A stretch of DNA of 64,000 nucleotides from an uncultured Candidatus Rokubacteria bacterium. Its GTDB lineage: Bacteria; Methylomirabilota; Methylomirabilia; Rokubacteriales; CSP1-6. The notes beneath the pieces were generated by a model that was given only the letters and a program-made list of their open reading frames with translations, had not been told where the DNA came from and did no database searches. Below are positions 7,451 through 27,938 of the stretch, piece by piece; position 1 is the first letter of the stretch; each line of letters begins with the position of its first letter. A program made the translations under genes and the position numbers. Location: NCBI GenBank assembly GCA_963789955.1, contig CAWBMV010000035.1, positions 8,512-72,511 of the forward strand, written 5' to 3'.

Positions 7451-7499
7451 TTGACAATCCCTGATCAGGCATAGTCTGATACCGGCCAGCCGGATCAGA
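7451..7499 (+). promoter_or_regulatory. putative -35 box with palindromic operator-like sites upstream of the liv operon
   Basis: TTGACA at 7451, palindrome CCTGATCAGG at 7460-7469, TCTGAT...ATCAGA inverted repeat at 7475-7499. Confidence 0.4.
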
Positions 7500-8955: not shown

Positions 8956-9894
8956 ATGAACTGGTGGGAGGTACTCGTCCAGCAGACCATCAACGGCCTG
9001 ACGCGCGGGGCCGTCTTCGCGCTGATCGCGCTCGGCTACACGATGGTCTACGGGATCATCGAGCTCATCAACTTCGCGCACGGCGACGTCTTCATGCTGG
9101 GCCTCTTCATCTCGCTCGCCTGGTTCGCGCTGCTCGGCGTCACGAAGACCTTGACCGGCTGGGAGCTCGTGACGATCCTGCCGCTCGTCTTCGTCCTGAC
9201 CATGCTCACCACGGCGGCGCTCAACGTGACGATCGACCGCGTCGCCTACCGCCCGCTGCGCCGCTCGACGCGGCTGGCGCCGCTGATCACCGCCATCGGC
9301 GTGTCGTTCATGCTGGAGAATCTGGCGCTCCTCTGGAAGGGCCCGGCGCCCATCGCGTATCCCGACGTGTTTCCGTCGGTCGACATCCTGCGCGAGTGGT
9401 TCGGCGTCGATTCGGCGATCTTCATCACCACCAAGGACGTGCTCGTGGTGGGCGCGACGATTCCGCTGATGATCGCGCTCAACTACTTCGTGACCCGGAC
9501 GCGCTGGGGCAAGGCCATGCGGGCGACGGCGCAGGATCGCGAGACCGCGCAGGCGATGGGCATCAACGTCGAGCGCGTCATCCTGGTGACGTTCTTCGTC
9601 GGCGGCGCGCTGGCGGGCGCGGCCGGGTTGATCCAGGGCATCTACTACAACATCGGCATGTGGTGGATGGGCTACCAGGCGGGCCTGCGCGCCTTCACGG
9701 CGGCGGTGCTCGGCGGCATCGGCAACATGCCCGGCGCCGCGCTCGGCGGGCTCTTCATCGGATTTCTCTCGGCGTGGAGCGACCAGTACATCTCCGCGCG
9801 CTGGACCAACGCGATCGTCTTCGCGATCCTCATCCTGGTGCTCGTCTTCCGTCCCCAGGGACTCCTCGGCGCCCGATCGCCGGACAAGGTATGA
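8956..9894 (+). CDS. livH: branched-chain amino acid ABC transporter permease LivH
   Basis: ALIALGYTMVYGIIELINFAHG, GKAMRATAQD, AFTAAVLGGIG. Confidence 0.93.
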   Translation: MNWWEVLVQQTINGLTRGAVFALIALGYTMVYGIIELINFAHGDVFMLGLFISLAWFALLGVTKTLTGWELVTILPLVFVLTMLTTAALNVTIDRVAYRPLRRSTRLAPLITAIGVSFMLENLALLWKGPAPIAYPDVFPSVDILREWFGVDSAIFITTKDVLVVGATIPLMIALNYFVTRTRWGKAMRATAQDRETAQAMGINVERVILVTFFVGGALAGAAGLIQGIYYNIGMWWMGYQAGLRAFTAAVLGGIGNMPGAALGGLFIGFLSAWSDQYISARWTNAIVFAILILVLVFRPQGLLGARSPDKV

Positions 9895-11837
9895 CGCCGG
9901 CGCTCCGCTGGACGGCGCTGGTCGTGGCGCTGCTCGCCTATCCGTTCGTCGACCGCGCGCTCGGGATCCAGACGGTGCACGCGGTCTCCGACGGCATGAT
10001 CTACGTGCTGCTCGCGCTCGGCCTCAACATCGTCGTCGGCTACGCGGGCCTGCTCGACCTGGGGTACGCGGCGTTCTTCGCGATCGGCGCCTACGCGATG
10101 GGCCTCTTGAACTCGCCGGTCGCTCGGCTCGCCGCTCTACGGACACGGCTGGAGCTTCTGGCTCTGCATCTGGATCGCCGCGGCGGTGTCGGCGCTGCTC
10201 GGCACCGTGATCGGCGCGCCGACCTTGCGGGTGCGCGGCGACTATCTCGCGATCATCACGCTCGGGTTCGGCGAGATCATCCCGGTCGCGATCCGCAATC
10301 TCGGCGACATCACGGTCGACATCGGGGGCTGGCGCCCGGTCGAGCGGCTCAACCTGACCGGCGGCGAGAACGGCGTCAACCCGATCGGCCGCCCGCACCT
10401 GCCCGGGCGTGCCGTTCGAGACCGATCCCGTGCCGTGGTACTTCCTGATCCTCGTCATCGGCGTCCTGTCGATCTGGGCGATGACCCGGCTCCACGATTC
10501 GCGCCTGGGCCGCGCGTGGATGGCGATCCGCGAGGACGAGACCGCCGCCGATTGCACCGGCGTCAACCCGATCTCGACCAAGCTCCTGGCGTTCGCGCTC
10601 GGCGCCTCGTTCTCGGGCTTCGCCGGCTCGGTCTACGCCGCGAAGCTCCAGGCCATCACGCCGGGCGCGTTCGAGTTCCAGGTGTCGATCATGCTCCTGT
10701 GCATGGTCGTGCTCGGCGGCGCCGGCAGCATCAAGGGCGTGATCCTCGGCGGCATGCTCATCACGATCTTCGACCGCGTCGTGCTCTCGCAGACGACGTT
10801 CTTCGTGCGCTGGATCGGACGCACGCACCGGCGTGCACGCACTGACGGTGGCCGACGTCACGCTGTGGCGCTGGTTCTTCTTCGGACTCGGGCTCGTGCT
10901 CGTGATGCTGCTGAAGCCCGAAGGCCTGGCCGGCCGCCGGGTCCGTCCGATCGCGCCGACCGACGACGAGCTCGACGCGCCTCGCGATCGAGGAAGCGCC
11001 GCGCCGCACGGCCGCCCTGCCGGCGTGGCTCCTCGAGAGTGCCCGGCGTTCGGCCGCGCCCGATCCGATTCTCGACGTGCGCGGGGTCGCCAAGCGCTTC
11101 GGCGGCGTCGTGGCCCTCGGCGAGGTCGACCTGGTCGTCCCGCGCGGCGCCATCATCGGGCTGATCGGCCCCAACGGCGCCGGCAAGACCACGTTCTTCA
11201 ACATCGTGACCGGCCTCATCTCGCCCGACGAGGGCCGCATCGTGTTCGCGGGCACCAGCATCGTGGGACTCCGGCCGAACGCGATCGTCGGGCGCGGGAT
11301 CGCGCGCACCTTCCAGTCGATCCGGCTCTTCCCGCAGATGACCGTGCTGGAGAACGTGCTGGTGGGCGAGCACTGCCGCCTGCGCGCGAGCGTACCCGGC
11401 GCCGTGCTGCGTCCGGCATCGGTCGTGGCCGAAGAGGCCCGCGCTCGCGAGCGGGCGCGCGAGCTGCTCGCGTTCATCGGCCTCGACGGCAAAGGAGACG
11501 ATCTCGCGCGCAACCTGCCGTACGGCGACCAGCGCCGGCTCGAGATCGCCCGCGCGCTCGCGACCGAGCCGCGGCTCCTCCTGCTCGACGAGCCGACCGC
11601 GGGCATGAACCCGCGCGAGACCGAGAACCTGACCGACCTTGATCGGGTCGCTGCGCCGCGAGCTCGACCTGGCCATTCTCCTGATCGAGCACGACATGGA
11701 AGTGGTGATGGGCATTTCCGACCGCATCACCGTGCTCGACTACGGCGTGCGCATCGCCGAGGGCACGCCGGCGGAGATCCAGCGGCATCCCAAGGTGATC
11801 GAAGCCTATCTGGGCACGGGCTACGAGCGCGAGCCGC

Positions 11838-11845
<8 letters not shown>
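9891..11845 (+). CDS. livM: LivM permease, probably fused to the LivG ATPase (several frameshifts)
   Basis: [50 protein letters not shown]; linker [33 protein letters not shown] is in frame with GPNGAGKTT...[15 protein letters not shown]. Confidence 0.82.
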
Positions 11846-12545
<700 letters not shown>

Positions 12546-12551
12546 CGCGGG

Positions 12552-13804
12552 TCAGCGGCGCGGCGTCAGGCCCTCGAGATCGAGCGCGGGCATGCGGCCC
12601 GCTCATCAGGTCGGCGACGATCCGGGCGGTGCCGCACGCCATCGTCCATCCCATGTGGCCGTGCCCGCTGTTGAAGAAGAGGTTGCGATGGCGGCCGAGC
12701 CCGAGAATCGGCGGCCCGTCTGGCGTCATCGGGCGCAGGCACGCGCGATACTCGCCCCGGTCGTAGTCGGCGGCGTCCGGGAAGAGATCGCGCGCGAGCT
12801 TCAAGATGTTGTTGAAGTCGCGCGGCGTCCAGCCCCAGTCGTAGCCGGCGAACTCCGCGGTCGACGTCAGCCGCAGCCGATCGCCCAGGCGTGACCAGCC
12901 GACCAGCCATTTCTCGTCGACGCCCGGCACCATCGGCGCGCGGCCGCCGGGCTTCAGCGGGAACGTCGACGAATAGCCCTTCGCCGGATAGACCGGAAGG
13001 CTCACGCCGGCCGTGCGCGCGACGATCGGCGCGCCGACGCCGAGCGCCAGCACGTAGTTGTCCGCCGTGAGCACGCCCGCGTTCGTGAGCGCCGCGTCGA
13101 TCCGGTCGCCGCCGGCCTGCAGCGCCGTCACGCGGGTGCCGAGCTTCACGACGACGCCGAGCTTCTCGCGACAGACGCGCGCGAGATTCTCGACGAAGAC
13201 GCGCGAATCACCGCTCGAGTCCCCGACGTCGCGGATCGCGCCGGCGATCTTGGCCTGGACGGGCTCGAAGACCGGATCGAGCTGGGCCACGCCGCGCGCG
13301 TCGAGGATCTCCTGCTTCTGCCCGTGCTCGGCGAGGAGCGCCATCTTCTTCACGCCGGCCTCGAGCTCGGCGCCATCGCGGTAGAGATAGAGCGCGCCTC
13401 TTCGTGATCGCGTGGTACTCGATCTGCTCGGCCCGCACCAGGTCGTTCATCACCGACTGGCTGTACTGGCAGAGCCGCAGCTTGATCAGGGTGTTCCGGC
13501 GCGCCCGGTCCGCGGTGCACTCGCGCAGGAAGCGCAGGCCCCACGTGTACAGGCGAAGGTCGGTCGTCGGCCGGATGCGGATCGCCGTCTCGCCGCCACG
13601 CAGCGAGTCCCACAGCATGCGCGGCGCGCGCGGCGACGCCCACGCGAACGAGTGGCCCGGCGCGATGATCCCGGCGTTGCCGGAGCTCGCCTCGAGGCCG
13701 AGCCCGTCCTTCTCCTCGAGGATCGTGACCTCGTGGCCCGCCTTGGCCAGGAAGTAGGCCGTCGTCACGCCGACCACGCCGCCGCCGAGCACGAGCGTCT
13801 TCAT
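12552..13804 (-). CDS. dadA: D-amino acid dehydrogenase (DadA-like FAD oxidoreductase), frameshifts near 13395 and 12598
   Basis: VLGGGVVGVTTAY, EASSGNAG, VYPAKGYS, ACLRPMTPDGPPILG, NSGHGHMGWTMACG. Confidence 0.85.
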
Positions 13805-13808
13805 GGGA

Positions 13809-14816
13809 TCACGCCTCGAGGAGGAATCCGGCTCGAACCGGATCGTCGGGATCGAAGAGGAACTGGCTGAATCCAGTCAGGTACGAGGTGCCGGTGATCT
13901 CCGGCAGGATCGCGCGCCGGCCCTCGACCGTGGTCTCGCCGGCGATGCGGCCCGTGAAGTCGAGACCCAGGAGCCCGCGGCTCGTGATGCTCTCGCCCAC
14001 GCGCAGGAGCCCGCGGTGATGGAAGAGCGCCATGCGCGCACAGGTCCCGGATCCGCAGGGCGCCGCGTCGACCTGACCCGGCCCCCACACGAGCGCGTTC
14101 GGCGAGACGCCCGCGCCGTCCGGCAGCTCGTGCACGAGCACGTTGTCGACGCTGGCCTTGCCGAGGCCCGGCACGTTCACCTCGAGCTGAGCATTGACGG
14201 CCTCGCGAACGGCCATGCCTCGCTGCGCGATGCGCTTGGCCAGCTCGCGCCGCACGCCGACGCCGAGCTTCTGCGCCTCGACGATGGCGAAGACGTTGCC
14301 GACGCCGACCGCGATGTCGACCGGCACCTCGCCCACCGATTCGACCTCGACGCTCTGTCCGGCGAGCACGACGAACGAGGGCGTCCAGCGCAAGGTGACC
14401 TCGCGAACGCGGTCGCGGTCCGAGCGCGCGACGGTCTCGACGACGCCGGCCTCCGTGTCGATGATCACGGGTGTCTCGGCGCCGACCCGCGGCACCATCC
14501 CGGTCTCGATCGCCACCGTCGCGGCGCCGATCGTGCCTTCGCCGCACGAGACGTAGTAGCCGCCGGGATAGATGAAGAAGAGCCCGAAGTGAGCGCCCGG
14601 CGTGACCGGCTCGGTCATCACCGCGATCAGGAGACTGCGGTGCCCGCGCGGCTCGAGGCAGAGACCCGTCCTCAGATCGTCGTGGTGCTCCTGGAAGAAG
14701 CGCCGCTTCTCGCCGATCGTGGCGCCCGGGAGCCGCCCGAGGCCGCTGGTGAGCAGACGCATCCCGATTCCGGCGGTGTGAAAATCGATGGTCGAGATGA
14801 CTCGATCGGACCGCAT
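13809..14816 (-). CDS. proline racemase family protein with deviant active-site motifs
   Basis: IDFHTAG, LEPRGH, SCGEGTIG and DAAPCGSGT (two catalytic Cys), ILPEITG. Confidence 0.88.
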   Translation of the reverse strand: MRSDRVISTIDFHTAGIGMRLLTSGLGRLPGATIGEKRRFFQEHHDDLRTGLCLEPRGHRSLLIAVMTEPVTPGAHFGLFFIYPGGYYVSCGEGTIGAATVAIETGMVPRVGAETPVIIDTEAGVVETVARSDRDRVREVTLRWTPSFVVLAGQSVEVESVGEVPVDIAVGVGNVFAIVEAQKLGVGVRRELAKRIAQRGMAVREAVNAQLEVNVPGLGKASVDNVLVHELPDGAGVSPNALVWGPGQVDAAPCGSGTCARMALFHHRGLLRVGESITSRGLLGLDFTGRIAGETTVEGRRAILPEITGTSYLTGFSQFLFDPDDPVRAGFLLEA

Positions 14817-14865
14817 GGGCACCTCACTCTGCGCGACGTCTGCGGCGCGCACCGCCGCGCCGAAA

Positions 14866-16347
14866 TCATACCGCAGACGCGGCCCGCCCGGCCGCTAGCC
14901 GACACGCCTGGAAGTAGGGCGCCGCGGTCTCCGCCAGCACGAGCCCTGGCCCGGCCGCGGCGCGAACCTCGCTCGCGATCGCGGCGACCTCGGCGAGCAC
15001 GGCCGGCTCGTCGAACGCCAGGATGCGGCCGTCGCGCAAGACCCACACGCCGTCGATCATCACCGCCGCCACCGCGGCGGCGCCGCCGTGCTGGACCAGA
15101 TGCGGCACCGTCACGGGCGATCCGGCCAGCGCGGCCGTGCGCGGATCGAGCAGCACGAGATCGGCGCGCTGGCCCGGCTCGATGCGGCCGACCGCCCCGG
15201 CCTGGCCGATCGCGCGGGCCCCGCCGCTCGTCGCCATCTCGAGGATCCGGCGCGGCGCGGGCCACGCGCGCGGGTCCGGCGTGTCGGGCCGCGGCAGCAT
15301 GAGGGCCAGGCGCATGATCTCGAAGAGGTCGTGGCGGCCGCCCGAGTTCGACGAGTCCGTCCCGAGCGCCAGCGGCACGCCGCGCTCCAGCATCATGGGC
15401 AGTGACAGGCGCCCGCTGCCGAGCATCAGGTTGCTGGCCGGATTGTGGACCACCGTCACGCCGTGGCGAGCGAGGAGATCGGCCTCCTCCGGCGCGAGCC
15501 ACACGCCGTGTGCCACCGAGAGGCGCTCGCTCAGAACACCGGCGCGCGCCATCTCCGCGACCGTCCCGCCCGGCCACACCGCCGCGCCCCTGACCGCCTG
15601 GGCCCGTGTCTCCACGAGATGCGTGTGCGCGTGAAGTCCCGGGTCGGCGGCGAGACGCCGCCACACGTCGATCAACCCCGAAGAGCAGCGCTGAAACGCG
15701 TTCGGACCGAGCAGGATCGTGACGCGGCGGTGACCGCGCCACTGACTCGCGAGATCGCGATACATGCCTTCGGCGGCGGCGGGCTCGGAGCGCGGCGCGG
15801 TGTCGAGCGCGGCGCGGATCTCCGGTGGAAGCGCGAGCTGCAGGAATTCGTGGTCGAAGACGTCGTGCATGAACGGCGCGAACGCGACGCGCATGCCGCT
15901 CGCCGCGTGCGCGGCCAGCGCGGCCTCGGCAAATCTCGTGTGCGGGAAATGATCGAGGCAGGCGGTGATCCCGTTACGGATCATCTCGGCGGCGCCGAGC
16001 AGGACGGCCAGCCGGATCGCCTCCGCGCCGAGCGCCCGGCCGTAGGCCACGGTATAGAGCGCCCATGGCTCGAGCGGCAGGCTGTTCTCGGTCCCTTTCA
16101 GCAAGGTGCCGTAGGAGTGATAGTGCGCGTTGACCAGGCCGGGCATCAGGATCATCCCGGCGGCGTCGATCACCTCGCCGGCCCGGGCCCTCGTGTCCCG
16201 CTGCTCACGGTCCGTCAGGGCGACCGCCACGATCGAGTCGCCCTCGACGAGCACGCCGCCCGCGCGCGGCTCGTTGCCCGCGTCGGGACGGACCAGCCGC
16301 GCGTTGGCGATGTAGACGCTCGACCGACCCGCGGCCGTTCCGCTCAA
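14866..16347 (-). CDS. metal-dependent amidohydrolase / deaminase (AtzA/MtaD-like)
   Basis: MPGLVNAHYH, HTHLVE (HxxE), VAHGVW, HNPASN, LGTD, GRIEPGQRADLV; TTG start overlaps the upstream stop. Confidence 0.88.
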   Translation of the reverse strand: MSGTAAGRSSVYIANARLVRPDAGNEPRAGGVLVEGDSIVAVALTDREQRDTRARAGEVIDAAGMILMPGLVNAHYHSYGTLLKGTENSLPLEPWALYTVAYGRALGAEAIRLAVLLGAAEMIRNGITACLDHFPHTRFAEAALAAHAASGMRVAFAPFMHDVFDHEFLQLALPPEIRAALDTAPRSEPAAAEGMYRDLASQWRGHRRVTILLGPNAFQRCSSGLIDVWRRLAADPGLHAHTHLVETRAQAVRGAAVWPGGTVAEMARAGVLSERLSVAHGVWLAPEEADLLARHGVTVVHNPASNLMLGSGRLSLPMMLERGVPLALGTDSSNSGGRHDLFEIMRLALMLPRPDTPDPRAWPAPRRILEMATSGGARAIGQAGAVGRIEPGQRADLVLLDPRTAALAGSPVTVPHLVQHGGAAAVAAVMIDGVWVLRDGRILAFDEPAVLAEVAAIASEVRAAAGPGLVLAETAAPYFQACRLAAGRAASAV

Positions 16348-17183
16348 GCCGTCAGCGACGGAAACCAGTGGCGCTTGCCCGCGCGAGCGAGCCGCGTGTC
16401 CCACTCGGCGAGGATTCGCACGGCCATGTTCGCCGCCTTCACGGAATGCTCGATGCCGCCGTAGACGAAGCGATCGGTGATGCGGTTCGCGACCACCGTG
16501 CAGACGGCGCCCGCGCGGAGACTGTAGAGGCCGGCCATCGTGAAGATCGTGGCCGCCTCCATCTCGAAGTTGAGCACGCCGGCGCGCCGCAGGTCGTCCA
16601 CCTTGTCGCGGAAGAACGCCTGCTCGTATCCGTTGAAGCCCGGCCGGCCCTGGCCGCAGTAGAAGGACGCGGTCGAGCAGCTCACGCCGACGTGGTAGCG
16701 GAGCCCGAGGCGCTCGGCGGCCTCCACGAGCGCCGCGGTCACCGCGTAGTGCGCGACGGCCGGGTACGCCGGATCGACGTAGTACTGGCTCGTCCCGTCG
16801 TGGCGCATCGCCCCCGACGAGATGACGATGTCGCCGCACTCGATCTCCGGCTGGAGCGCTGCCGTCGTGCCCACGCGGATGTAGGTGTCCCCGCCGAGGA
16901 CCGCGAGCTCCTCCAGGGCGCTCGCCGTCGAGCCCCCGCCCGCGCCGGTCGAGCAGCACGTGAGCGCGACACCGCCGACCTTGCCGGAGAACGTGCGGTG
17001 CTCGCGATAGTTGGCGATGCGGCGCGACTCGTCCCAGTCGGCGGCGATCAGGTCCACGCGCTCCGGATCGCCCGGCAGGAGGACGTAGCGTTCCACGTCA
17101 CCGCGCTTGCACCGGATGTGGTACTGCAGGCCCGCGTCCATCTCGGGCCGCGTAGCCGCCGACGTCCAGTTCGATGGCGTCAT
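16344..17183 (-). CDS. udp: uridine phosphorylase family nucleoside phosphorylase
   Basis: QYHI, VLLPGDPERV, NYREHRT, YIRVGTT, SFYCGQGR, NFEMEAATIF, VVANR. Confidence 0.87.
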   Translation of the reverse strand: MTPSNWTSAATRPEMDAGLQYHIRCKRGDVERYVLLPGDPERVDLIAADWDESRRIANYREHRTFSGKVGGVALTCCSTGAGGGSTASALEELAVLGGDTYIRVGTTAALQPEIECGDIVISSGAMRHDGTSQYYVDPAYPAVAHYAVTAALVEAAERLGLRYHVGVSCSTASFYCGQGRPGFNGYEQAFFRDKVDDLRRAGVLNFEMEAATIFTMAGLYSLRAGAVCTVVANRITDRFVYGGIEHSVKAANMAVRILAEWDTRLARAGKRHWFPSLTA

Positions 17184-17954
17184 CCCTTGGTCTCCTTCTT
17201 CACGACGATGGCCGGAATTCCGGTGCTGAAGCTCGCGACCGGCACGAGCTCGGACACGTTTTCTTCGGCGCAGTAGCCCACGTCATCGGGCGAGCCGATG
17301 CGGCGCACGACGGCGGCCGACATCGACTGATCGAAGGCCTCGCGCGTCCCCGCGAACACCGACGCGGCGTTGCGCGCGATCGTGGCCGACTCGCGCAACG
17401 TCACTGTCTCCCCGCCGGCCCGAACGAGCTCCTCGCCGTGACGCAGGAGGGCCGCGGCGCAATAGGAGTCGTCGAGGGCGGGAATCAGGCTCTGCTCACG
17501 TCCCGGCGCACACCAGGCTGATGCTCCGGCCGAGCCGGCGCGCCAGCGCGACGGCCGATCGCATGACGGCGGCGCCGTTGCGCATGCAGCCGATCAGCAC
17601 GTGCTCGACGCCGCAGTCGCGCACGAGCTCGGCCGCGAGTGTGCCGTTGGTCGTGGCGAGGATCACGCGGCGGCCCGCGAGGTCGATCGCGTGGAGCGCC
17701 GCCGGCGAGGGCGTGAGATCCGCGTCGGCGGCTTTCAGCCCCGAGGTGTCCTCGGCGCACACCAGCGCATCGAGCCGGGTGCGCAGCTCGGCGACTCGTG
17801 GACGATCACGCTGGCCGACCAGGATGACCTCAGAGCAGCCGCGGTCCAGCAAGGTCACGATCGTGGTGCTCGCGCGGATCACGTCGATCAGCACCGCGAC
17901 CGGAGACGGCTGCCGCGTCGCCTCGCGCGGCAGGAAGCAGACCTCGAAGTCCAC
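17180..17954 (-). CDS. 2-phosphosulfolactate phosphatase (ComB) family phosphatase, frameshift near 17500
   Basis: [41 protein letters not shown], then [11 protein letters not shown] and DDVGYCA in the shifted frame. Confidence 0.82.
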
Positions 17955-17964
17955 TGAGCCGCGC

Positions 17965-19317
17965 TTACGAGGTGGCCGGCGCCGCGTTGGCGGAGGGGAC
18001 GTCGCCCGGATCGGCGCCCTGCGCGCGCATCGCCCGCTGGATCGCGACGGGATCGACGTCGCGTAGACGCGAGCCGTGATTCAGCGCCAGCGCGGCCGCG
18101 ATGCCGGCGGCCTGGCCCTGCACCATGCACGGCGGGATCTCGCGCGAGATCTTCTGCGCCTGCGGATCGGCCGAGTAGTGCCGCCCGGCCACGATGAGCT
18201 GGTCGAGGTTCTTGGGAAGCAGCGCCCGGTACGGCGTGTAGTAGTCGCGCCCCCGGCAGACCGTGTCGCGGAAGTGGCGCCGCTCGAGCACGTCTGCCTT
18301 GGTGACGACGTACTCGCCCTCGAGCAGCCGGCTCTGGCGCACGCCGAGCTGCGGCGCGACGTCGATCAGATAGCACTGAGCGAAGCCGGGAAGCTCGGCG
18401 CGCGCGAACGCCATCAACGACGCGATGCGGCGCCTGCCCTCCAGCTCGGCGGCGGTCATGTCCTCGACCTTGAGGGCGTCGTAGCCGGTCATGTGCGGGC
18501 AGTTGCACCAGACGATGCCGGGGAGCGGCGTCTTGAGCCACCAGAAGTCCCAGGCGCCACCGAGCAGTCGCTTGGCCTGCCGGTCCAGCGCGCTGAACTC
18601 CTCGGGGTGCTCGTACTCGAACCGGAGCGCTGCGTCGGTGTCCACGTTGCCGAGGCGGAACACGGTCGTCACCATGTACCCGCCGACGACGTGCGGGGCG
18701 CCGGCCCGCGCGGCGACGTCGAGGTCGCCGGTTGCATCGACGACGATCTCGGCGAGCAGCGCCTGGCGGCCCGCCTTGGTCTCGACCACGGCGCCGCGCA
18801 GGCGCCCGTCCTCGACGATCGGCTCGGAGAACCAGCTGTGCAGCCTCAAGTTGACGCCGCTCTCGACGACGAGATCTTCCGAGACTGCGTTTCCAGCCGT
18901 CCGGATCGAACGCGACCGCGTAGACGATCGGCTGGGGCTTTCCGTGGGCGCGGAAGTCGTGGCATCCCCAGCGCGCCCACGTCCGCCACACGTCCCAGCC
19001 CACGCGGCGCTCTTCGATCGGCGGCGACACCGCGAGGCCGAGCTTCTCGAGCCGCTCGATGGCCTCGCCGATCAGCCCCGTCGTGGTGATTTCGGCTCCG
19101 TTCACCATGTCGTCGAGCACGAGCACCATGCCGCCCGACGCGAGCCCGCCGAGATACGGATAGCGCTCGATCAACGTGACCCGCGCGCCGCTCCGCGCCG
19201 CGGCGACCGCGGCACTGACTCCGGCCGGACCTCCGCCCACCACGAGCACGTCGCTCCGGTCGACGATCGGGGTCGAGCGGGTCGCCTCGGCGACCGTGGG
19301 CGGCGGGGCGCAGCCAT
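17965..19317 (-). CDS. FAD-dependent oxidoreductase (uncharacterised FAD_oxidored family), frameshift near 18880
   Basis: [62 protein letters not shown]. Confidence 0.87.
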
Positions 19318-20154
19318 CACGACACCTCGCCCTGTTTCCAGGTGACGATGCGCCGCTCGGCGAAGCTGACCACGGCGAAGAAGACGACGGCCCAGGCCGA
19401 GGAGACGAACACCGTCGCGTAGAGAAGCGGCGAGCGGAAGTTGTGGGTGGCCTCGATGATCAGGGCGCCCAGCCCCAGGTCGGCGCCGATCCACTCGCCG
19501 ACGATCGCCCCGAGCACGGAGGTGGTCGAGGCGATCTTGAGCGCCGAGAACAGGAACGGCAGCGAGCTCGGCACGCGCAGCTTCCAGAACACCTCGGCCT
19601 TGCTCGCCGACAGCACGCGCATCAGCTCGAGCGATTGCGGGTTCACCGACGTGAGGCCCCGCACCATGTTGGCGAGGGTCGGGAAGAAGCAGATGAACGC
19701 GGCGATCACGACCTTGGAGGTCATCCCGAGCCCGAAGATCAGGACCAGGATCGGCGCCTTGGCCAGGATCGGGATCGTGTTCACGAACACCGCGATCGGA
19801 TACAGCGCCGCTTCGAGACGGCGAGAGTGCACGAACAGCACGGCCACCGCGATCGCGATCGAGTTGCCGACGACGAACCCGATGAGGCTCTCGACCGCGG
19901 TCGGCACGAAGTTGCGCATGAGCATGGGGAAATCGCTCACCAGGGCTTTCGTCACCTGGATGGGCGTGGGCGCGATGTAGATCGGGTAGCGAGAACACCT
20001 GCGCCAGGATCTGCCAGGCGGCGACGAGCACCGCCGCGGCGATGAACGGCAAGAGCGCCTGCGATCGGGGGCGCGGCGGCCGCGAGACGGCCGGCGCGGG
20101 AGCGCGGCGCGCGGCGGCGGGCTCGGCGATGACCGCGGTCGGCTTGTCGTCCAT
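19317..20154 (-). CDS. NitT/TauT family ABC transporter permease, frameshift near 19990
   Basis: [54 protein letters not shown]. Confidence 0.9.
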
Positions 20155-20170
20155 CAGCGCCGTCCGTCCA

Positions 20171-20953
20171 TCAGCACGTTTGGAGTAATGCGCGCAGGTG
20201 CGAGGCGATCCGGATGAACTCCGGCGTCTCGCGGACGCTGAGCGGCCGGGGATAGGGCAGCTCGCACGCGACGAGCTCGCGCACGCGCCCCGGGTTGGTG
20301 GCCAGGACCAGGACGCGCTCGGACAGAAAGACCGCCTCCGGAATGCTGTGGGTGACGAAGAGGATGGTGGTGCCGGTCTCCCGCCAGATCCTCAGCAGCT
20401 CCTCGTTCAAGGTGTCGCGCGTGATCTCGTCGAGCGCGCCGAACGGCTCGTCCATCAGGAGGATCCGCGGCTCCGAGACGAGCGCCCGCGCGATCGCGAC
20501 CCGCTGGCGCATGCCGCCCGAGAGCTCGTGCGGCAGCGCGTGCTCACGCCCGGCGAGGCCGACGAGCCGCAAGAGCTCTTCCGGCTTGCGGAGCCCGGCG
20601 CGATCCCGCTTCTTCGGCCCGACCTCGAGGGGGAGCCGCACGTTTTCGAGCGCCGAGCGCCACGGCAGCAAGGTCGCGTCCTGGAACACGAACCCGAGCT
20701 CGCGGTTGAGTCGCGCCCGCTCCGGAGGTCCCCCGAGCACCGAGACCGTGCCGTGAGTCGGCGAGACGAGATCGGCGACGAGACGGAGCAGCGTCGACTT
20801 GCCGCATCCGGAGGGTCCGAGCAGGCTGACGAAGCCGCCCGGCTGCACCGCGAGGCCGACATTCTCGAGCGCGGTGACGGAGCCGCGCTCGCTCGTGAAC
20901 CGGACGGTGGCGTTCTCGAGCTCGACGGCGAGTGTCGCGCCCGGACTGCTCAT
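20171..20953 (-). CDS. NitT/TauT family ABC transporter ATP-binding protein
   Basis: [56 protein letters not shown]. Confidence 0.94.
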
Positions 20954-20975
20954 GGGCTCGCCGGACTCGCCCCGC

Positions 20976-22029
20976 CTACGCGCCGATCTTGGGCCGCGCG
21001 GCCGCCGTCGCCTTCAGAGATCGCATCGGTCATCACGTCGGTGACCTTCGGGGCCGGGCCCTTGAACTGCTGGAGCTCGTCGTAGATGTGCAGCTGCTGC
21101 TCCCACACGCCGGGCTCCATCGTGCCCCAGCCCTTGGCCGCGGTGGTCTTGGTGAAGCTGAAGCCGAGCACGGGCTTGATCGCCGCCATCTCGGCGTCGC
21201 GATCCAGGTTCGGGTACGCCTTCACCAGGAGATCGACGGCCTTGTCCGGATTCTGCTGCGCGTACGCCCAGCCCTTGGCCGCCGCGCGCGTGAACCCGGC
21301 GAGCACGTCGCCGTGCTTCTGGAGCGTGTCGTCGGTCGCGTAGTAGAGGTTCGCGTAGAGCTGGATGCCCGCGTCCCAGAGCCGCATGTCGACCCGGTCG
21401 GAGCCGAGCGGCTTCAAGGCACTCGCGTTCGTGAGCCAGCCGGTGACCGCGTCGACCTGGCCCGTCAAGAGCGGCGCCATGTCGCTGCCCATCACCACGA
21501 CCTGCACGTCGGACTCCTTGATCTTGTGCTTGGCCAGGAGCGCGCGCAGGAGAATCTTCGCGGTGCCCTGCGTGCCGATCTTCTTGCCGATCATGTCCTG
21601 CGGCGTGCGGATCGGCTTCTTCGGAAGCGAGAAGTACGTGAACGGGTGCTCCTGATATCCGACCGCGAAGCACTTGACCGGGATCCCGCCCGCGCGGGCG
21701 AGCATCAGCGACGGGCTCGACGACAGGTTGCCGGCCTGAGCGGATCCGGCGGCCACGACCGCCACGCCGTCGACGTTCGGACCACCCGGCGCGAATTTCA
21801 AGTTGATCCCCTCGGCTTCGAAATAGCCGAGGCTGCGCCCGGCGACCTCGCCGATCTGGCCGTTGCTCATGATCCAGCCGAGCTGGAACGTCACCTCACT
21901 CGTCGCGGCGCGCGCGCCGCGCGCGACGGAGATGACGCCGCCGCCCGCCGCCACTCCGGCGAGCAGTGCGGCCGAGCGGCCGAGCATGTGGCGGCGGGTC
22001 AGATCGTGACTGGCGGGTGTCCGGCTCAT
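20976..22029 (-). CDS. NMT1/THI5-like ABC substrate-binding protein with Tat signal (probable terminal indel near 21015)
   Basis: GGAGG RBS; TRRHML twin-arginine signal; [31 protein letters not shown]. Confidence 0.88.
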
Positions 22030-22055
22030 AAATCCTCCTCGCGGCTCTGCTCGAC

Positions 22056-22138
22056 CGTTCCGCAACCTTAGCCGGTTTCCCCGGAGAATCCAAGCGCGCG
22101 AGGTTCCCTTTGACCTCCGTGCCGGCGTCACCTACGCT
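22056..22138. promoter_or_regulatory. divergent sigma70-type promoter pair; the + strand transcript is probably leaderless
   Basis: Minus strand TTGGAT-N17-TAAGGT; plus strand TTGACC-N17-TACGCT ending 6 nt before the GTG at 22145, with no RBS. Confidence 0.55.
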
Positions 22139-22144
22139 GCGACG

Positions 22145-23098
22145 GTGAACTCGAGCGTCGAATACATCGGGCCGCGGGCCGCCTTCGCGACGCTCGGTGG
22201 AAGCCCGACCTGGGGCCTCGGCGATCGGTTCCACGAGCTCGCGGCGACACGCGGACACACGAGGCTCGGCATCCACCGACCTCGGACGCCCTACGGTCTC
22301 GGTCCCCAGGTGGAGCACTTCCGAGGGCCGAGCGGGCGTGAGTTCCTGCGCATCCCGACGTACGGTCAGGTCGTCGACGAAGATCCCCTGCTGCACGCCA
22401 GCGAGTGGAAGACGTTCTGGATTCTCTGGAAGGCAGGTGTGCGCGTGCTGCTCGTCGGCGGCACCAGCGGCAGCTGCGACTGGCGGCGAACGGCCGTCGA
22501 CGAGGACGCCGTGCGTCCCGGCGACTTCGTGCTGCCGAAGAGCTACCTGACGCGCGACACGATGCCGACCGGCCTGCCCGGCACCGAGCTCGAGTTCTGC
22601 CTGCCGCGCCAGGTCGCGATCATGGACGATCCCTTCTGCCCGCCGCTCGCGGACGCGCTGCGCTCGCGCGCCGGGCGCGCGCTCGATTTCAGATTCCGTC
22701 GCATCCACGGCCCGGAGGCCGGCGTGGTGCTGAACCGCTGGCTCGCCGGAAACGGCTTCGAGTCGCTCGCGACGTGCCGCATGCTCGAAGCGTCGGGCCG
22801 CCAGATCGGAATGCCGATCATCACCGGTGACTGCGTGAGCCCGGTGCTGGCGCGCGTGTGCGGGATGCACCTCGCGTACTACCACGTCGTGGCCAACTGG
22901 GGCACCGGGCTCGAGCCCGACGATCCGACGATCGTCTTGAATCGGCTCTACATGGAGACGCTTCCCGCGGTGGCCGCGGCCCTCGAGCTCTCGTTCCTCG
23001 ACGAGGCGAGCGAGCCGACCGCGTGCCGGTGTCGCGAGCTCCTGCGCGCTCGCCCCCCGGAGTACGCGCGAGCGCTGAGCCCCCGCGCGACGCAGTAA
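22145..23098 (+). CDS. divergent MTAP/purine nucleoside phosphorylase family protein
   Basis: ATLGGS, VGGTSGS, VRPGDFVLP, MDDPFCPPL, GFESLA, LARVCGM, VVANWGTG align with MTAP family blocks. Confidence 0.7.
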   Translation: MNSSVEYIGPRAAFATLGGSPTWGLGDRFHELAATRGHTRLGIHRPRTPYGLGPQVEHFRGPSGREFLRIPTYGQVVDEDPLLHASEWKTFWILWKAGVRVLLVGGTSGSCDWRRTAVDEDAVRPGDFVLPKSYLTRDTMPTGLPGTELEFCLPRQVAIMDDPFCPPLADALRSRAGRALDFRFRRIHGPEAGVVLNRWLAGNGFESLATCRMLEASGRQIGMPIITGDCVSPVLARVCGMHLAYYHVVANWGTGLEPDDPTIVLNRLYMETLPAVAAALELSFLDEASEPTACRCRELLRARPPEYARALSPRATQ

Positions 23099-23121
23099 AC
23101 TCGACGTCCAGGAGGAGAGCC

Positions 23122-24063
23122 TTGAAGACGATCACTCCAGCGCTCAAGCAGATCGCGTCGGGGCTGCGATTCCCCGAGGGCCCGGTGGCGATGAGCGACG
23201 GTTCGGTGGTGCTGGTCGAGATCGAACGGCGCACGCTCTCGCGCGTCACACCCGACGGCAAGATCCACGTGGTCGCCACCCTGGGCGGCGGGCCGAACGG
23301 CGCGGCGATGGGGCCGGGCGGCAAGATCTACGTGACCAACAACGGCGGGCTGAAGTTCATGGATCGCCCGGGCAAGCTGTTTCCGATCGCGCAGGGCGAC
23401 GACTACAAGGGCGGGCTGATCCAGCGAGTCGATCCCGAGACCGGAAAGTTCGAGACGCTCTACGATTCGTGCGACGGGATGAAGCTGCGCGGGCCGAACG
23501 ATCTCGTGTTCGACAACGCCGGCGGCTTCTGGTTCACGGATCTCGGCAAGACGCGCGATCGCGACATGGATCGCGGCTCGGTCTACTACGCGAAGGCCGA
23601 CGGCTCGATGATCAAGGAGGCGATCTTCCCGCTCGAGCGGCCGAACGGGATCGGGCTCTCGCCGGACGAGCGCACGCTCTACGTCGTCGAGACGCCGACC
23701 GCGCGCTGCTGGGCGTTCAAGCTCTCGGCGCCCGGCCAGATCGAATCGGCCAATGGTCCGTATCGCGGCGAGAAGGGCACCGTCATCGCCGGGCTCGGCG
23801 GCTATCAGATGTTCGACTCGCTCGCGGTCGACGGCGAGGGCCACATCTGCGTGGCGACCCTGATCACCGGCGCGGTGAGCGACATCTGGCCGGACGGCAG
23901 CCGCGTCGACCAGTACAAGCTGCCGGACATGATGGTCACCAACGTCTGCTTCGGCGGCCGCGAGCTCAGGACCGCGTTCGCGACCCTGTCGATGGGCGGC
24001 ACGCTCGTGTCGTTCGAGTGGCCGCGGCCGGGCCTCGCGCTCAAATACCTGAACACGCCATGA
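23122..24063 (+). CDS. SMP-30/gluconolactonase/LRE family protein
   Basis: GGAGG RBS, GLRFPEGP, GPNDLVFD, PNGIGLSPD, DSLAVD, TNVCFGG. Confidence 0.92.
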   Translation: MKTITPALKQIASGLRFPEGPVAMSDGSVVLVEIERRTLSRVTPDGKIHVVATLGGGPNGAAMGPGGKIYVTNNGGLKFMDRPGKLFPIAQGDDYKGGLIQRVDPETGKFETLYDSCDGMKLRGPNDLVFDNAGGFWFTDLGKTRDRDMDRGSVYYAKADGSMIKEAIFPLERPNGIGLSPDERTLYVVETPTARCWAFKLSAPGQIESANGPYRGEKGTVIAGLGGYQMFDSLAVDGEGHICVATLITGAVSDIWPDGSRVDQYKLPDMMVTNVCFGGRELRTAFATLSMGGTLVSFEWPRPGLALKYLNTP

Positions 24064-25352
24064 GTCTCTCCGACCGCTATGGCCTGACGCTCTCGACGAC
24101 ATCGGCCGACGCCGCCCGGCACTACCAGGACGGCATGGACCGGCTGCTCTCCTACGGCTTCGGCGCCGATCAGTCGTTCGCCGCGGCGGTCGCGGCCGAC
24201 GAGGGATTCGCCCTCGGCCACGCGGGCGCGGCGCTCTTCTCACTCTTCCAGGGCGACGGCGCCTCGGCGAAGGCGTCGATCGAGCGGGCGCGCGGCCTGA
24301 CGGCCGGGGTGACGCGGCGCGAGCGGCAGCACGTCGAGGCGCTCGCCGCGATCGCCGGCGGCGAATCGGCGCGCGGCCTGGCGCAGATCGAGGAGCACGT
24401 GAAGGAATTTCCGCGCGACGCGCTGCTCGTCAACCAGGCGGGCAGCACCATCGGGCTCGGCGGCCGCGCCGATCGCGAGGCGCTGCGGGTCGGATTCATC
24501 GAAGGCCTGGCCCACGCCTACGGCGACGACTGGTGGTATCAGTCGGCGCTCGGCTTCACCTATCACGAGGTCGGACGCTACGAAGAATCGCGGCGGCTCT
24601 CCGAGCGCTCGCTCGCGCAGTACCAGGGCAACGCGAACGCCAGCCACAACATCGCCCACGTCTGCTACGAGACCGTCGACAACGAGGGCGGGATCGCGAT
24701 GCTCTCGGACTGGCTCGGCGGCTACGACCGGCGCGCGCCGTTCCATTGCCACCTGGCCTGGCACGTGGCGCTCTTCGAGCTTCAGTGCGGCCGGCCCGAG
24801 CGCGCGCTCACGATCTACGAGCGCGACATCGCGCCGTCCTCCAATCCGCGCCTGGCCATGATCGACGGCTCGGCGTTGCTGTGGCGCTTCGGGCTCTACG
24901 ACTATCAGAAGGGGCCCCTGCCGTGGCGTCGGCTGGCCGACCTCGCGACCCGGGTCACACGCCCGGGCTTCATCTTCGGCGACGTCCACGCCGCCCTCGC
25001 CTACGCGTCGGCCGGCGACGACGCGGCGCTATCGGCGCTGATCAGCGGCCTGGAAGCCCTGCACGCGAAGGGGCACCCGATCGCCGGCATGGTGGCCCTG
25101 CCGCTGGTCAGAGGCGTCGCGGCCTACGTGGCCGGCGACTACGCCGGGGCTCTCGGCCTCATGGAGTCGGTCGACGGCGAGATCCACCGGGTGGGCGGTA
25201 GCCACGCCCAGTGGGAGCTGTTCGAAGAGACGATGGTGGTCTGCCTGCTGCGGCTCGGTCGCCTCGACCAGGCCCAGCGACTCATTCGCCGGCGCCTGGG
25301 CGTCCGCTCGTCGCCGCGCGATCTCGCCTGGCTCGATCAGACGACTCACTGA
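24060..25352 (+). CDS. TTC38-like tetratricopeptide repeat protein
   Basis: DRYGLTLST, RERQHVEAL, FPRDALL, ASHNIAHV, HCHLAWHVAL, VGGSHAQ; ATG overlaps the upstream stop. Confidence 0.8.
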   Translation: MSLSDRYGLTLSTTSADAARHYQDGMDRLLSYGFGADQSFAAAVAADEGFALGHAGAALFSLFQGDGASAKASIERARGLTAGVTRRERQHVEALAAIAGGESARGLAQIEEHVKEFPRDALLVNQAGSTIGLGGRADREALRVGFIEGLAHAYGDDWWYQSALGFTYHEVGRYEESRRLSERSLAQYQGNANASHNIAHVCYETVDNEGGIAMLSDWLGGYDRRAPFHCHLAWHVALFELQCGRPERALTIYERDIAPSSNPRLAMIDGSALLWRFGLYDYQKGPLPWRRLADLATRVTRPGFIFGDVHAALAYASAGDDAALSALISGLEALHAKGHPIAGMVALPLVRGVAAYVAGDYAGALGLMESVDGEIHRVGGSHAQWELFEETMVVCLLRLGRLDQAQRLIRRRLGVRSSPRDLAWLDQTTH

Positions 25353-26055: not shown

Positions 26056-26086
26056 ATGGGGGCCCCGAAATGGCCCCCATACCCCC
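26056..26086. repeat. REP-like GC hairpin
   Basis: ATGGGGGCC-CCGAAAT-GGCCCCCAT perfect 9-bp stem followed by ACCCCC, just after a stop codon. Confidence 0.6.
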
Positions 26087-26241
26087 TCGCTCGGCGTTTT
26101 TCTGACCTTGGTCGGTCTCCGTCGTTTCTGCGATCGCTACCCGACCGCTTGCTTCTGAGCTACCATTCCTGCCGTGGCCAGGCTGGCGGTCTGGCTTGTT
26201 CCTCTGGGTGGATCACGGCGCTTTCGGAAAGGAGCGGCGAG

Positions 26242-27938
26242 ATGACCTACGACCTGCTGATCAAGAATGGACGCGTCATCGACGGATCCGGGCGGCCCGC
26301 GTACCACGGTGACGTCGGTGTGGCGAAGGGCAAGATCGTCGAGCTCGGGCGTCTGAGCGGATCCGCGCGCCAGACGATCGAGGCCGACGGCCGGGTCGTC
26401 TCGCCGGGCTTCGTCGACAATCACTGCCACTACGACGCGCAGGTCGTGTGGGATCCCCTCTGCACCTACTCCTGCCACCACGGCTCCACCACGGTGATCA
26501 TCGGCAACTGCTCGCTCGCGCTGGCGCCCGTCAAGCCCGAGGCGCGCGAGAAGCTGGCGGGCATGCTCTCGTACGTCGAAGCCATCCCGATGGACGTCCT
26601 GCAGGCCGGCGTGCCCTGGAACTGGGAGACGTTCCCTCAGTACATGAGCGCGATCGGCCAGCGGCTCGGCGTCAACGTCGGCACGCTCGTCGGCCATTCG
26701 GCCGTGCGGCTCTACGCCATGGGCGAGGAGTGCTCGGACCGCGACGCCACGCCGGACGAGCTCGAGACGATGCGCCGCCTGGTCCGCGAATCGCTCGAGG
26801 CCGGCGCGCTGGGGCTCTCGATCACGCGGAACATGAATCACTTCGACATCGCGGGCAAACGCATTCCCGCGGCCTGCGCGCCGGAGTCGGAGCTGTTCGC
26901 GCTGGCCGACGTGCTGCGTGAGGTCGGCACGGGGGTGATGCAGTGCGGCGGCGGCACCAATCCCGAGCTGAAGGACAAGCTCCTGTCCCGCATCTCGGAA
27001 GCGTGCGGCCGGCCGATCATGTACAACACCCTGCTCGAGCAGGCCCGGCAGCCCGGGCGCTGGAAGGCGCACCTGGCGCACGTCGAGGAAACCGTGAAGC
27101 AGGGCATCCGCGCGATCCCGCTCTGCAACCCCGGCAGCGTCGTCAACCGGTTCACGATGAAGAACTGCCAGGTGTTCCGCAGCATGCCGACGTGGCTGCC
27201 GATTCTGCAGGGCGCCGACGCCGACAAGCTTTCCGCGTACGCCAATCCGGCGATCCGCGCGAAGCTGCGCGAAGAGGTCGACGCGCCGCTCGGTCCGGAC
27301 TCGACCTTCTCCAAGCGCTGGGACCTCATGTTCGTCGAAGAGCCCAAGCTCGCGAAGAATCGCGGGCTCGCGGGCAAGCACATCGCCGAGATCGCCCAGG
27401 CCAGGGCCAGCATCCGCTCGACGCGTTCCTCGATCTGGCCGTCGAGGAAAACCTGGAAACGGTGTACAGCCTGGGCGAGATCAACATGGACACCGAGGCC
27501 GTCGCGCAGATCCTCGGCAGCCCGTACGCGGTGGTCGGACTCACCGACGGCGGCGCTCACGTGCAGTTCCACTCGAACGTCAGCAACCCGACCCGGCTGC
27601 TCGGCTACTGGGTGCGCGAGAAGCAGATCATGTCGCTCGAGCACGCCGTGCGGCGGCTGACGTACGACTCGGCCTCGGCGTTCGGCATCTACGACCGCGG
27701 CCTGGTGCAGCCGGGCATGGCGGCGGACCTGGTGGTCTTCGACCCGGACACCGTCGCGCCGGTCAAGGAAGACGTCGTGCACGATTTCCCGGCCAACGGC
27801 TGGCGGATGCGCGAGCTGGCCGAGGGCATCCACTACACGGTGGTCAACGGCGAGGTGCTGCTCGAGAAGGGCCAGCACACCGGAAGTCATCCCGGGCGCG
27901 TGATCCGCAACGCTCGCTATCAGATGGCGGGCGCGTAG
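26242..27938 (+). CDS. N-acyl-D-amino-acid deacylase family amidohydrolase, frameshift near 27405
   Basis: YDLLIKNGRVIDGSG, SPGFVDNHCHYDAQ, IGNCSL, TDGGAH, RGLVQPGMAADLVVFDP. Confidence 0.9.

Follow-up and report, generated by a model that had tools for sequence, protein, structure and literature searches.

We examined a 64,000-nucleotide stretch of contig CAWBMV010000035.1 (assembly GCA_963789955.1; the whole stretch is referred to here as the window) from an uncultured Candidatus Rokubacteria bacterium. Positions 14823–23122 of the window hold eight genes which, by our estimate with slightly better than even chances, form a module for the uptake and cleavage of ordinary nucleosides, together with accessory enzymes. 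The module is set between older neighbours, these being the gluconolactonase-like gene SGL on one side and the gene pair ProR–DadA on the other. Uncultured and abundant in soil, Rokubacteria have large genomes and a physiology that has been little tested, and the module, if this reading is true, would show how some of them tap nucleosides from soil nucleic acids. The window is about 70% G+C, so that lists of its open reading frames (ORFs) are crowded, and genes were picked by third-position G+C in combination with Pfam and NCBIfam scans. These scans were run on the window and on an intact orthologous locus (L007), and protein work used intact orthologues (L007 and others). Both sets of scans bore out the gene order of the initial annotation, nine minus-strand genes and a divergent one:

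20950–22029, minus strand: NMT1/THI5-like substrate-binding protein (SBP) with a twin-arginine signal; PF09084, 165.7 bits
20171–20953, minus strand: ATP-binding cassette (ABC) ATPase; PF00005, 111.5 bits
19317–20154, minus strand: ABC permease, BPD_transp_1; PF00528, 97.6 bits
17965–19317, minus strand: PF12831 FAD-dependent oxidoreductase (flavoprotein); PF12831 in two frames
17180–17954, minus strand: ComB-like protein, 2-phosphosulfolactate phosphatase family; PF04029 in two frames
16344–17183, minus strand: uridine phosphorylase Udp, hexameric NP-I type, intact; TIGR01718, 279.7 bits against a cut-off of 280.3
14866–16347, minus strand: COG0402 amidohydrolase (Amidohydro_1), nucleoside/base deaminase-type; PF01979, 163 bits
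22030–22144, intergenic: divergent region with a conserved motif at 22107–22134
22145–23098, plus strand: Div, predicted diverged protein like methylthioadenosine phosphorylase (MTAP) and purine nucleoside phosphorylase (PNP), 317 amino acids, in the module; fold and family profile
14817–14895, intergenic: module boundary with the collinearity break, a weak hairpin and the GGTATGAT element
13809–14816, minus strand: ProR, proline-racemase-superfamily enzyme, outside the module; PF05544, 300 bits
12552–13804, minus strand: DadA-like FAD D-amino-acid dehydrogenase, outside the module; DAO domain in two frames
23122–24063, plus strand: SGL, SMP-30/gluconolactonase-like, outside the module, starting 24 nt downstream of Div; PF08450

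The Div reading frame is found elsewhere at 172–1146 of L007 and 4904–5869 of L018. Junctions within the module are overlaps of 1–4 nt or gaps of no more than 16 nt. The tight spacing that had been described for the nine genes was thus seen at every junction except that from the amidohydrolase to ProR, where 50–78 nt separate the genes, more than at any other junction in the row.

Comparisons covered 251 genomes of the Rokubacterial phylum and one pattern scan anchored on ComB; the loci (L) and genomes (G) cited here are likely to derive from one set of species-representative genomes, so that their counts are not independent. Nine other genomes of the same genus carry the region nearly complete, at 81–96% DNA identity. 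In two genomes of this genus (G016 and G003) ProR–DadA lies directly divergent to SGL and the block is absent. Their DNA is collinear with the window at 12545–14822 and again from 23109/23123 onward, with about 100 bp replacing 14823–23122, and the break in collinearity with both genomes at 14822/14823 indicates a clean indel between SGL and ProR. ProR–DadA was found without the block in five of five further genomes examined (L049–L053); G021, G024 and G018 have kept ProR–DadA and a convergent livKHMGF operon in the absence of the block. The opposite case is represented by L019, which contains seven genes of the block without ProR–DadA, and by all five of the sister modules described below, which likewise lack the pair. 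Because the block is a clean indel and either set occurs without the other, we treat ProR–DadA as separate from the module. The racemase and DadA had been annotated as an amino-acid branch of a common pathway, an assignment that these data do not support.

The genes of the module itself are held together. The order SBP–ATPase–permease–flavoprotein–ComB–Udp–amidohydrolase was the same in all 10 orthologous loci (L011–L020), of which L016 ends inside the amidohydrolase gene. A check of gene neighbourhoods for co-occurrence of the ComB-like and Udp-like genes, suggested with the initial annotation, was thereby answered in the affirmative for these two genes, and the racemase proved separable from them (G016, G003, L019). 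The gene content points to nucleoside import and cleavage, as had been proposed. Only some Candidatus Rokuibacteriota carry the block 14823–23122. In the genome of the window (G000) the module genes are single-copy and PF00962 is absent; another strong PNP_UDP_1 gene is found elsewhere, at C37.

Related arrangements were recovered through weak DNA matches in G002 and through a search with Div. Four of these sister modules, in G002, G206, G149 and G154, are encoded on one strand in the order Udp–SBP–ATPase–permease–COG0402 amidohydrolase–adenosine deaminase (PF00962)–Div, that of G149 carrying a PF12831 flavoprotein between Udp and SBP. The fifth, in G243, has the order PNP/MTAP-like gene–SBP–ATPase–permease–Div. 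A PNP_UDP_1 phosphorylase, an NMT1-type importer and Div recur together, and around them deaminases, flavoprotein and ComB vary: ComB is confined to one variant and absent from all sister modules, and the flavoprotein is found in one sister module. The flanks of three sister modules (L088, L089 and L091) were unrelated to each other and contained no conserved regulator or ribose genes. G243 carries two units on different contigs, these being the seven-gene block without Div or ProR–DadA (L019) and the PNP-like–SBP–ATPase–permease–Div unit (L087); Linkage of Div to the block is thus not obligatory. The literature that we searched, which lay largely outside subscription journals and supplements, contained no description of the module; among the papers listed, none was relevant by title or abstract to nucleosides in Rokubacteria, and those naming PF12831 had no bearing on the module.

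From the gene content a route can be proposed. The NMT1/ThiY-type SBP, exported by the twin-arginine route, would act with the permease and ATPase to import nucleosides and possibly free bases. The COG0402 amidohydrolase, to judge from its family, would deaminate an amino-bearing nucleoside or base of the adenosine/5'-substituted-adenosine or cytidine/cytosine type. Udp would phosphorolyse uridine-type nucleosides to uracil and ribose-1-phosphate, a step well supported by conservation of the active site. Div would phosphorolyse a purine nucleoside (6-oxo or 5'-substituted), as its fold suggests. The ComB-like phosphatase and the flavoprotein may, more speculatively, act on phosphorylated input or a sugar phosphate and on a downstream product, respectively; they are considered accessory because ComB is absent from all sister modules and the flavoprotein from most.

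Udp looks orthodox. It scored 278.8 bits against TIGR01718 in the L007 orthologue, close to the value in the window, and the Udp of a sister module passed the cut-off at 285.6. The HMMER alignment to the E. coli enzyme (1k3f/1tgv; 3e-50) shows that 13 of 13 E. coli active-site positions checked are kept (H8, G26, R30, R48, R91, T94, F162, Q166, R168, E196, M197, E198 and R223), the only replacement noted being Phe for Tyr195. We take these residues to bind phosphate, ribose and uracil as in the E. coli structures, with Gln166 and Arg168 presumably reading the uracil. Because the E. coli positions are conserved, the sequence argues for ordinary uridine-type nucleosides as substrates in preference to uridines substituted at N3, acp3U for example. 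A modified uridine, whether with an N3 substituent or with the amino-acid moiety suggested in the initial annotation, is disfavoured by the active site, and also by the ordinary adenosine deaminase that sister modules carry.

The amidohydrolase starts with a TTG codon that overlaps the Udp stop, and its true stop is probably the TAG at 14895–14897, hidden by a 1-bp extra near 14901. It is a member of COG0402 by domain (PF01979, 163–171 bits in the window and an intact orthologue) and by its metal and catalytic motifs, the HxH, HxxE, H and D elements being present as NAHYH, HTHLVE, HG and GTDS. Its top NCBIfam matches, all below cut-off, were N-ethylammeline chlorohydrolase, 5'-deoxyadenosine deaminase and TRZ/ATZ, and its closest entries in the PDB were 3lnp, 4dzh, the methylthioadenosine (MTA)/S-adenosylhomocysteine (SAH) deaminase 4f0r, and AtzA. 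No characterised specificity (MTA/SAH, 5'-deoxyadenosine, guanine, 8-oxoguanine or triazine) could be assigned from the equivalog models, which scored 108–226 bits against cut-offs of 351–779.

Div had been described as a second, divergently transcribed phosphorylase, a description that stands at the level of fold and fails at that of Pfam membership. Div gave no significant Pfam match (PF01048, 13.4 bits against a gathering threshold of 25.1, E=0.05) and no NCBIfam match, and a sequence search of the PDB returned weak PNP matches. An AlphaFold (AF2) model built from an alignment of 26 homologues had a pLDDT of 82 and a pTM of 0.85, and all of the 26 Foldseek matches listed for it, down to rank 49, were MTAP, methylthioinosine phosphorylase (MTIP) or PNP, with E-values of about 1e-11, TM-scores of 0.52–0.75 and identities of 16–22%; the P. 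aeruginosa methylthioinosine phosphorylase 3ozb was among the best. A profile of the Div family matched human MTAP (E=0.0038) with the MDEPFCP and GxxFxSxA motifs aligned, and its neighbours in the Atlas were 'phosphorylase family 2' clusters. The model thus places Div in the trimeric PNP/MTAP nucleoside phosphorylase fold as a highly diverged member, one recognised by fold and not by Pfam score. The Div family was found in 27 of the 251 genomes, and in company with an NMT1 transporter and a phosphorylase it occurs in three architectures.

The intergenic region between Div and SBP contains a conserved motif, TAGGTGACGCCG..GAGGTCAAAGG (22107–22134), which is single-copy in the window genome. 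The motif is found between Div and SBP in block-bearing (type-A) loci and, where the module is missing (L052 and L053), between SGL and ProR. Read on the plus strand it resembles a promoter, TTGACC-17-TACGCT, about 6 nt before the GTG start of Div. If this reading holds, Div may be a leaderless gene inserted between SGL and the SGL promoter. A promoter scan called no promoter-like sites, TTGACC-17-TACGCT included.

The properties of the amidohydrolase and Div would also fit the scavenging of 5'-substituted adenosines arising from S-adenosylmethionine chemistry (methylthioadenosine, 5'-deoxyadenosine and S-adenosylhomocysteine), a possibility that we consider unlikely without being negligible. 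Here the amidohydrolase would deaminate the substrate, Div would cleave the resulting inosine analogue, and processing of the 5-substituted ribose phosphate would fall to ComB and the flavoprotein, giving these two proteins an unusual task. The nearness of the amidohydrolase to 4f0r and its relatives, the place of 5'-deoxyadenosine deaminase among its top NCBIfam matches, and the resemblance of Div to 3ozb are all consistent with such a route. However, it leaves unexplained both the canonical Udp of every variant and the ordinary adenosine deaminase of the sister modules, the equivalog scores are all far below their cut-offs, and the strong PNP_UDP_1 gene at C37 could be a housekeeping MTAP. 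A comparable system is known from Pseudomonas aeruginosa, in which MTA is handled by an MTA deaminase and a methylthioinosine phosphorylase. The module resembles that route in pairing a COG0402 deaminase-like enzyme with an MTAP-fold protein, but differs from it in the 16–22% identity to solved phosphorylases, in missing the equivalog cut-offs by hundreds of bits, and in always including Udp.

The SBP carries an RRxxLG twin-arginine motif and, as read from the sequence, starts at an ATG at 22029 after AGGAGGA; the export signal and the PF09084 domain place it in the NMT1/THI5-like family. Its closest PDB entry was 4nmy (2e-19), followed by the formylaminopyrimidine (FAMP)-binding ThiY 3ix1 (2e-13) and then by THI5, so that it lies closer to pyrimidine-binding ThiY/THI5 than to binders of sulfonate or nitrate, and its earlier description as THI5-like is supported by these nearest structures. 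The ATPase is 87% identical to its L007 orthologue over its full length in a single frame.

With ThiY as the second-best solved relative of the SBP, followed by THI5, salvage of the thiamine pyrimidine (hydroxymethylpyrimidine or FAMP) or of another vitamin pyrimidine has to be considered, with import through the ThiY-like SBP followed by action of the amidohydrolase and phosphatase. We judge this improbable. A permissive Rfam search of 12000–25000 yielded no match, and thus no thiamine pyrophosphate (TPP) riboswitch; family scans found no TenA, ThiD or YlmB-type genes in the block; and the two phosphorylase-fold proteins and the adenosine deaminase of the sister modules have no role in such salvage. 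Compared with the ThiXYZ/ThiY formylaminopyrimidine transporter, the module shares an NMT1-fold SBP, ABC permease and ATPase, but it has neither thiamine genes nor a riboswitch and its neighbours are nucleoside enzymes.

Nucleoside uptake and cleavage, the function that we favour, is more readily compared with the classical deo/udp/cdd/add loci and their nup or BMP importers. These also combine an importer with phosphorylases and deaminases, and the likeness extends to an orthodox Udp and, in the sister modules, to PF00962. There are also differences. Characterised nucleoside ABC importers, as far as is known, use binding proteins of the BMP family, whereas the SBP of the module is of the NMT1/ThiY type. 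The purine-side phosphorylase of the module belongs to a family missed by Pfam. Finally, the phosphopentomutase DeoB was found in none of five module-bearing genomes (87–99% completeness), and the variant in the window adds the ComB-like phosphatase and the PF12831 flavoprotein. The module is unusual in its NMT1-type receptor, in an MTAP-like family that Pfam does not recognise, and in having ComB and PF12831 accessories although its lineage lacks DeoB.

The two accessory proteins were analysed further through their intact orthologues. The flavoprotein scored 306.7 bits against PF12831, a very large family (13,702 representatives at E <1e-3). A PDB sequence search with it returned matches in the Rossmann region only. 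Its structural model (pLDDT 93) gave generic two-domain flavoprotein matches only, Foldseek and VIA-align yielding a flat plateau (TM ≤0.56, Z 17–22) of FixC, geranylgeranyl reductase, fumarate and urocanate reductases, halogenases and Thi4 from which no functional lead emerged. The copy in the G149 sister module (L089) is 47% identical. The ComB-like protein belongs to its family by domain (PF04029, 139.4 bits against 26.4, the domain being split over two frames in the window). It reached no NCBIfam equivalog cut-off, the best being NF010700 at 103.7 against 332, and family scans of the locus found no phosphosulfolactate synthase, the ComA partner. Orthologues of at least 63% identity occur at 10 loci, all inside this module, an orthologue being present in 11 of the 251 genomes. 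Distant homologues in other phyla (identity up to 39%) had module neighbours within 10 kb at none of 28 loci. At one such distant locus, L044, an unrelated PF12831 gene of 29% identity lies at a distance of 8 kb. The literature searched contained no paper joining 2-phosphosulfolactate phosphatase with uridine phosphorylase.

The missing DeoB, which bears on the fate of ribose-1-phosphate, is the sole hint, and a weak one, that the ComB-like protein might act on a sugar phosphate. A fuller proposal would join an NMT1/ThiY-fold receptor for a nucleoside or base and a new MTAP-fold purine-cleaving clade to a ComB/PF12831 route that disposes of ribose-1-phosphate or a 5-substituted ribose phosphate without DeoB, by dephosphorylation and then flavin-dependent oxidation. 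We regard this combination as doubtful. If the favoured reading of the module as a whole is true, the NMT1/ThiY binding proteins would gain a further class of ligands, and a first functional context would be provided for the Pfam-invisible MTAP-like family and for bacterial ComB homologues outside coenzyme M synthesis.

Several observations weigh against assigning the module to nucleosides or against its limits as drawn here. The ligand and the activities ascribed to its proteins are predictions. To our knowledge NMT1-family SBPs are not established binders of nucleosides, and among the papers listed in the literature searched none dealt with nucleoside binding by NMT1/ThiY-type proteins. Div has diverged at the positions that bind ribose and phosphate in PNP and so may not be a phosphorylase. 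Div also stands alone in G036, G249 and G034, all three of the genomes examined from the sister family f4, with an SBP–ATPase–permease set lying 6 kb from it in G034. Because every NCBIfam equivalog of the amidohydrolase and ComB falls far below its cut-off, the substrates of these two proteins could be unrelated to nucleosides. We know of no role for the flavoprotein or ComB in textbook nucleoside salvage, and structure searches did not narrow the function of the flavoprotein. Lastly, ProR follows on the same strand after only 50–78 nt, and no convincing terminator was found between, so that it may be co-transcribed with the module by read-through.

This last point bears on a pathway that would include all nine or ten genes and degrade a modified, amino-acid-bearing nucleoside or nucleotide. 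This would be imported, stripped of phosphate and ribose and deaminated, after which the freed amino acid would be racemised and oxidised. Beyond the shared strand and the short distance from amidohydrolase to ProR, such a pathway gains from the finding that ProR–DadA follows the module in eight of nine testable orthologous loci (DadA accompanies ProR in all loci), and from TRZ/ATZ-type COG0402 enzymes, which we take to be able to displace N-alkyl groups. Nevertheless we give it little credence. The module is a clean indel beside ProR within the same genus, each set occurs without the other as described above (five further genomes in one direction, L019 and the five sister modules in the other), the uracil pocket of Udp is canonical, and a proline-racemase-superfamily gene beside a DAAO-family gene has been documented as a mark of hydroxyproline catabolism (PMC4113996). 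The tight same-strand spacing had hinted at one pathway, and comparative genomics splits the row into two independent modules.

The GGTATGAT element precedes ProR both with the module and in module-less genomes, and ProR may thus keep its own proximal promoter there. The promoter scan found nothing on the ProR side, and four terminator-like sites were called against 3.0 expected from shuffles, so that a transcript end between the amidohydrolase and ProR is neither favoured nor disfavoured. Parts of the region, among them the flavoprotein/ComB, permease/ATPase and Div/SGL junctions, are covered by contigs from three RNA-labelled libraries, although contigs as such do not reveal transcripts. One of these contigs spans the divergent promoter (21955–22473), so that carry-over of DNA is possible. 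The amidohydrolase–ProR gap is bridged by none of the contigs listed, a result to which we attach no evidential weight.

ProR and DadA have affinities of their own. ProR has a Cys/Cys catalytic pair (SCGEG and APCGSG) of the racemase/epimerase type; the NCBIfam models for proline racemase, 4-hydroxyproline epimerase and 3-hydroxyproline dehydratase did not separate and all scored below their cut-offs. The intact orthologue of DadA reached 374.6 against 383 for NF001933. According to an eLife 2014 study (PMC4113996), the 4-hydroxyproline epimerase route is recognised by its gene neighbourhood, in which a proline-racemase-superfamily gene lies next to transporters and a DAAO-family gene, and ProR–DadA corresponds to the definition given there, a Cys/Cys enzyme of the superfamily beside a DAAO-family dehydrogenase. 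Clusters for 4-hydroxyproline 2-epimerase and cis-4-hydroxy-D-proline dehydrogenase share with this locus a ProR-family Cys/Cys enzyme, a DAO dehydrogenase and an amino-acid ABC transporter. The locus differs from them in that no DHDPS-family deaminase or aldehyde dehydrogenase adjoins: neither a DHDPS-family pyrroline-4-hydroxy-2-carboxylate (Pyr4H2C) deaminase nor an alpha-ketoglutarate semialdehyde dehydrogenase was found among the ORFs scanned at 7455–27660, the stretch to which the search was limited. Judged from these genes, ProR–DadA with the convergent livKHMGF operon appears to be an independent and older (hydroxy)proline or D-amino-acid unit. A metagenome-assembled genome labelled Candidatus Binatia (L015) contains the whole block with an insert of about 1.8 kb between the amidohydrolase and ProR (11510–13311).

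A potential concern is the state of the reading frames in the window. Comparison by tblastn revealed at least five frame breaks in four of the nine genes, located in the permease (near 19984), the flavoprotein (near 18886), ComB (near 17501) and DadA (near 13400 and 12600). Each is a 1-bp insertion found in the window alone when compared with five relatives. The flavoprotein has in addition a window-specific 5-bp extra near 19302–19310 (same five relatives), and two more 1-bp extras unique to this assembly lie at the 3' end of the SBP gene, near 20970 and 21017. The ATPase/permease junction (20148–20165) has a tandem duplication of 17 bp, GATGGACG...GCTGATGGACG, that is likewise confined to this assembly; it is absent from four of five relatives compared, and the fifth (L004) aligns differently at that spot. 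Contigs of short reads from four public runs are one base shorter at 12602, 13400, 17502, 18887, 19983, 20971 and 21017. The unrelated flanking gene livMG contains five frame changes in the window and serves as a gauge of the indel error rate of the assembly, which has 38 contigs and a marker completeness of 87%. Because the breaks are unique to the window, missing from short-read contigs and accompanied by five frame changes in livMG, they are assembly indel errors and not pseudogenes. That the cluster is instead decaying through real pseudogenising mutations, as so many breaks in four of nine genes might suggest, has only a very slim chance, given single-base insertions absent from five relatives and from short-read contigs of other runs at seven positions, a flanking gene that is broken as well, and few contigs at 87% completeness, typical of error-prone long-read assembly. 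Long-read indel errors can thus mimic pseudogenes in annotation.

In the same four public runs contig depth rises 10- to 100-fold over the ABC ATPase (20280–21067). Conserved ATPase motifs of many organisms would be expected to cross-map in this way, and the rise is not a copy-number signal.

Outside the module, livM and livG form one fused gene of about 726 amino acids in the relatives L018 and L012, with BPD_transp_2, ABC_tran and BCA_ABC_TP_C domains; the corresponding segment of the window is 9660–11842. Downstream of SGL the window encodes a TPR-repeat protein and an Amidohydro_3 protein (26056–27660 and 23469–25352), which are also present in L012. The pair is not conserved in L018, where a UDP-glucose dehydrogenase takes its place beside the block.

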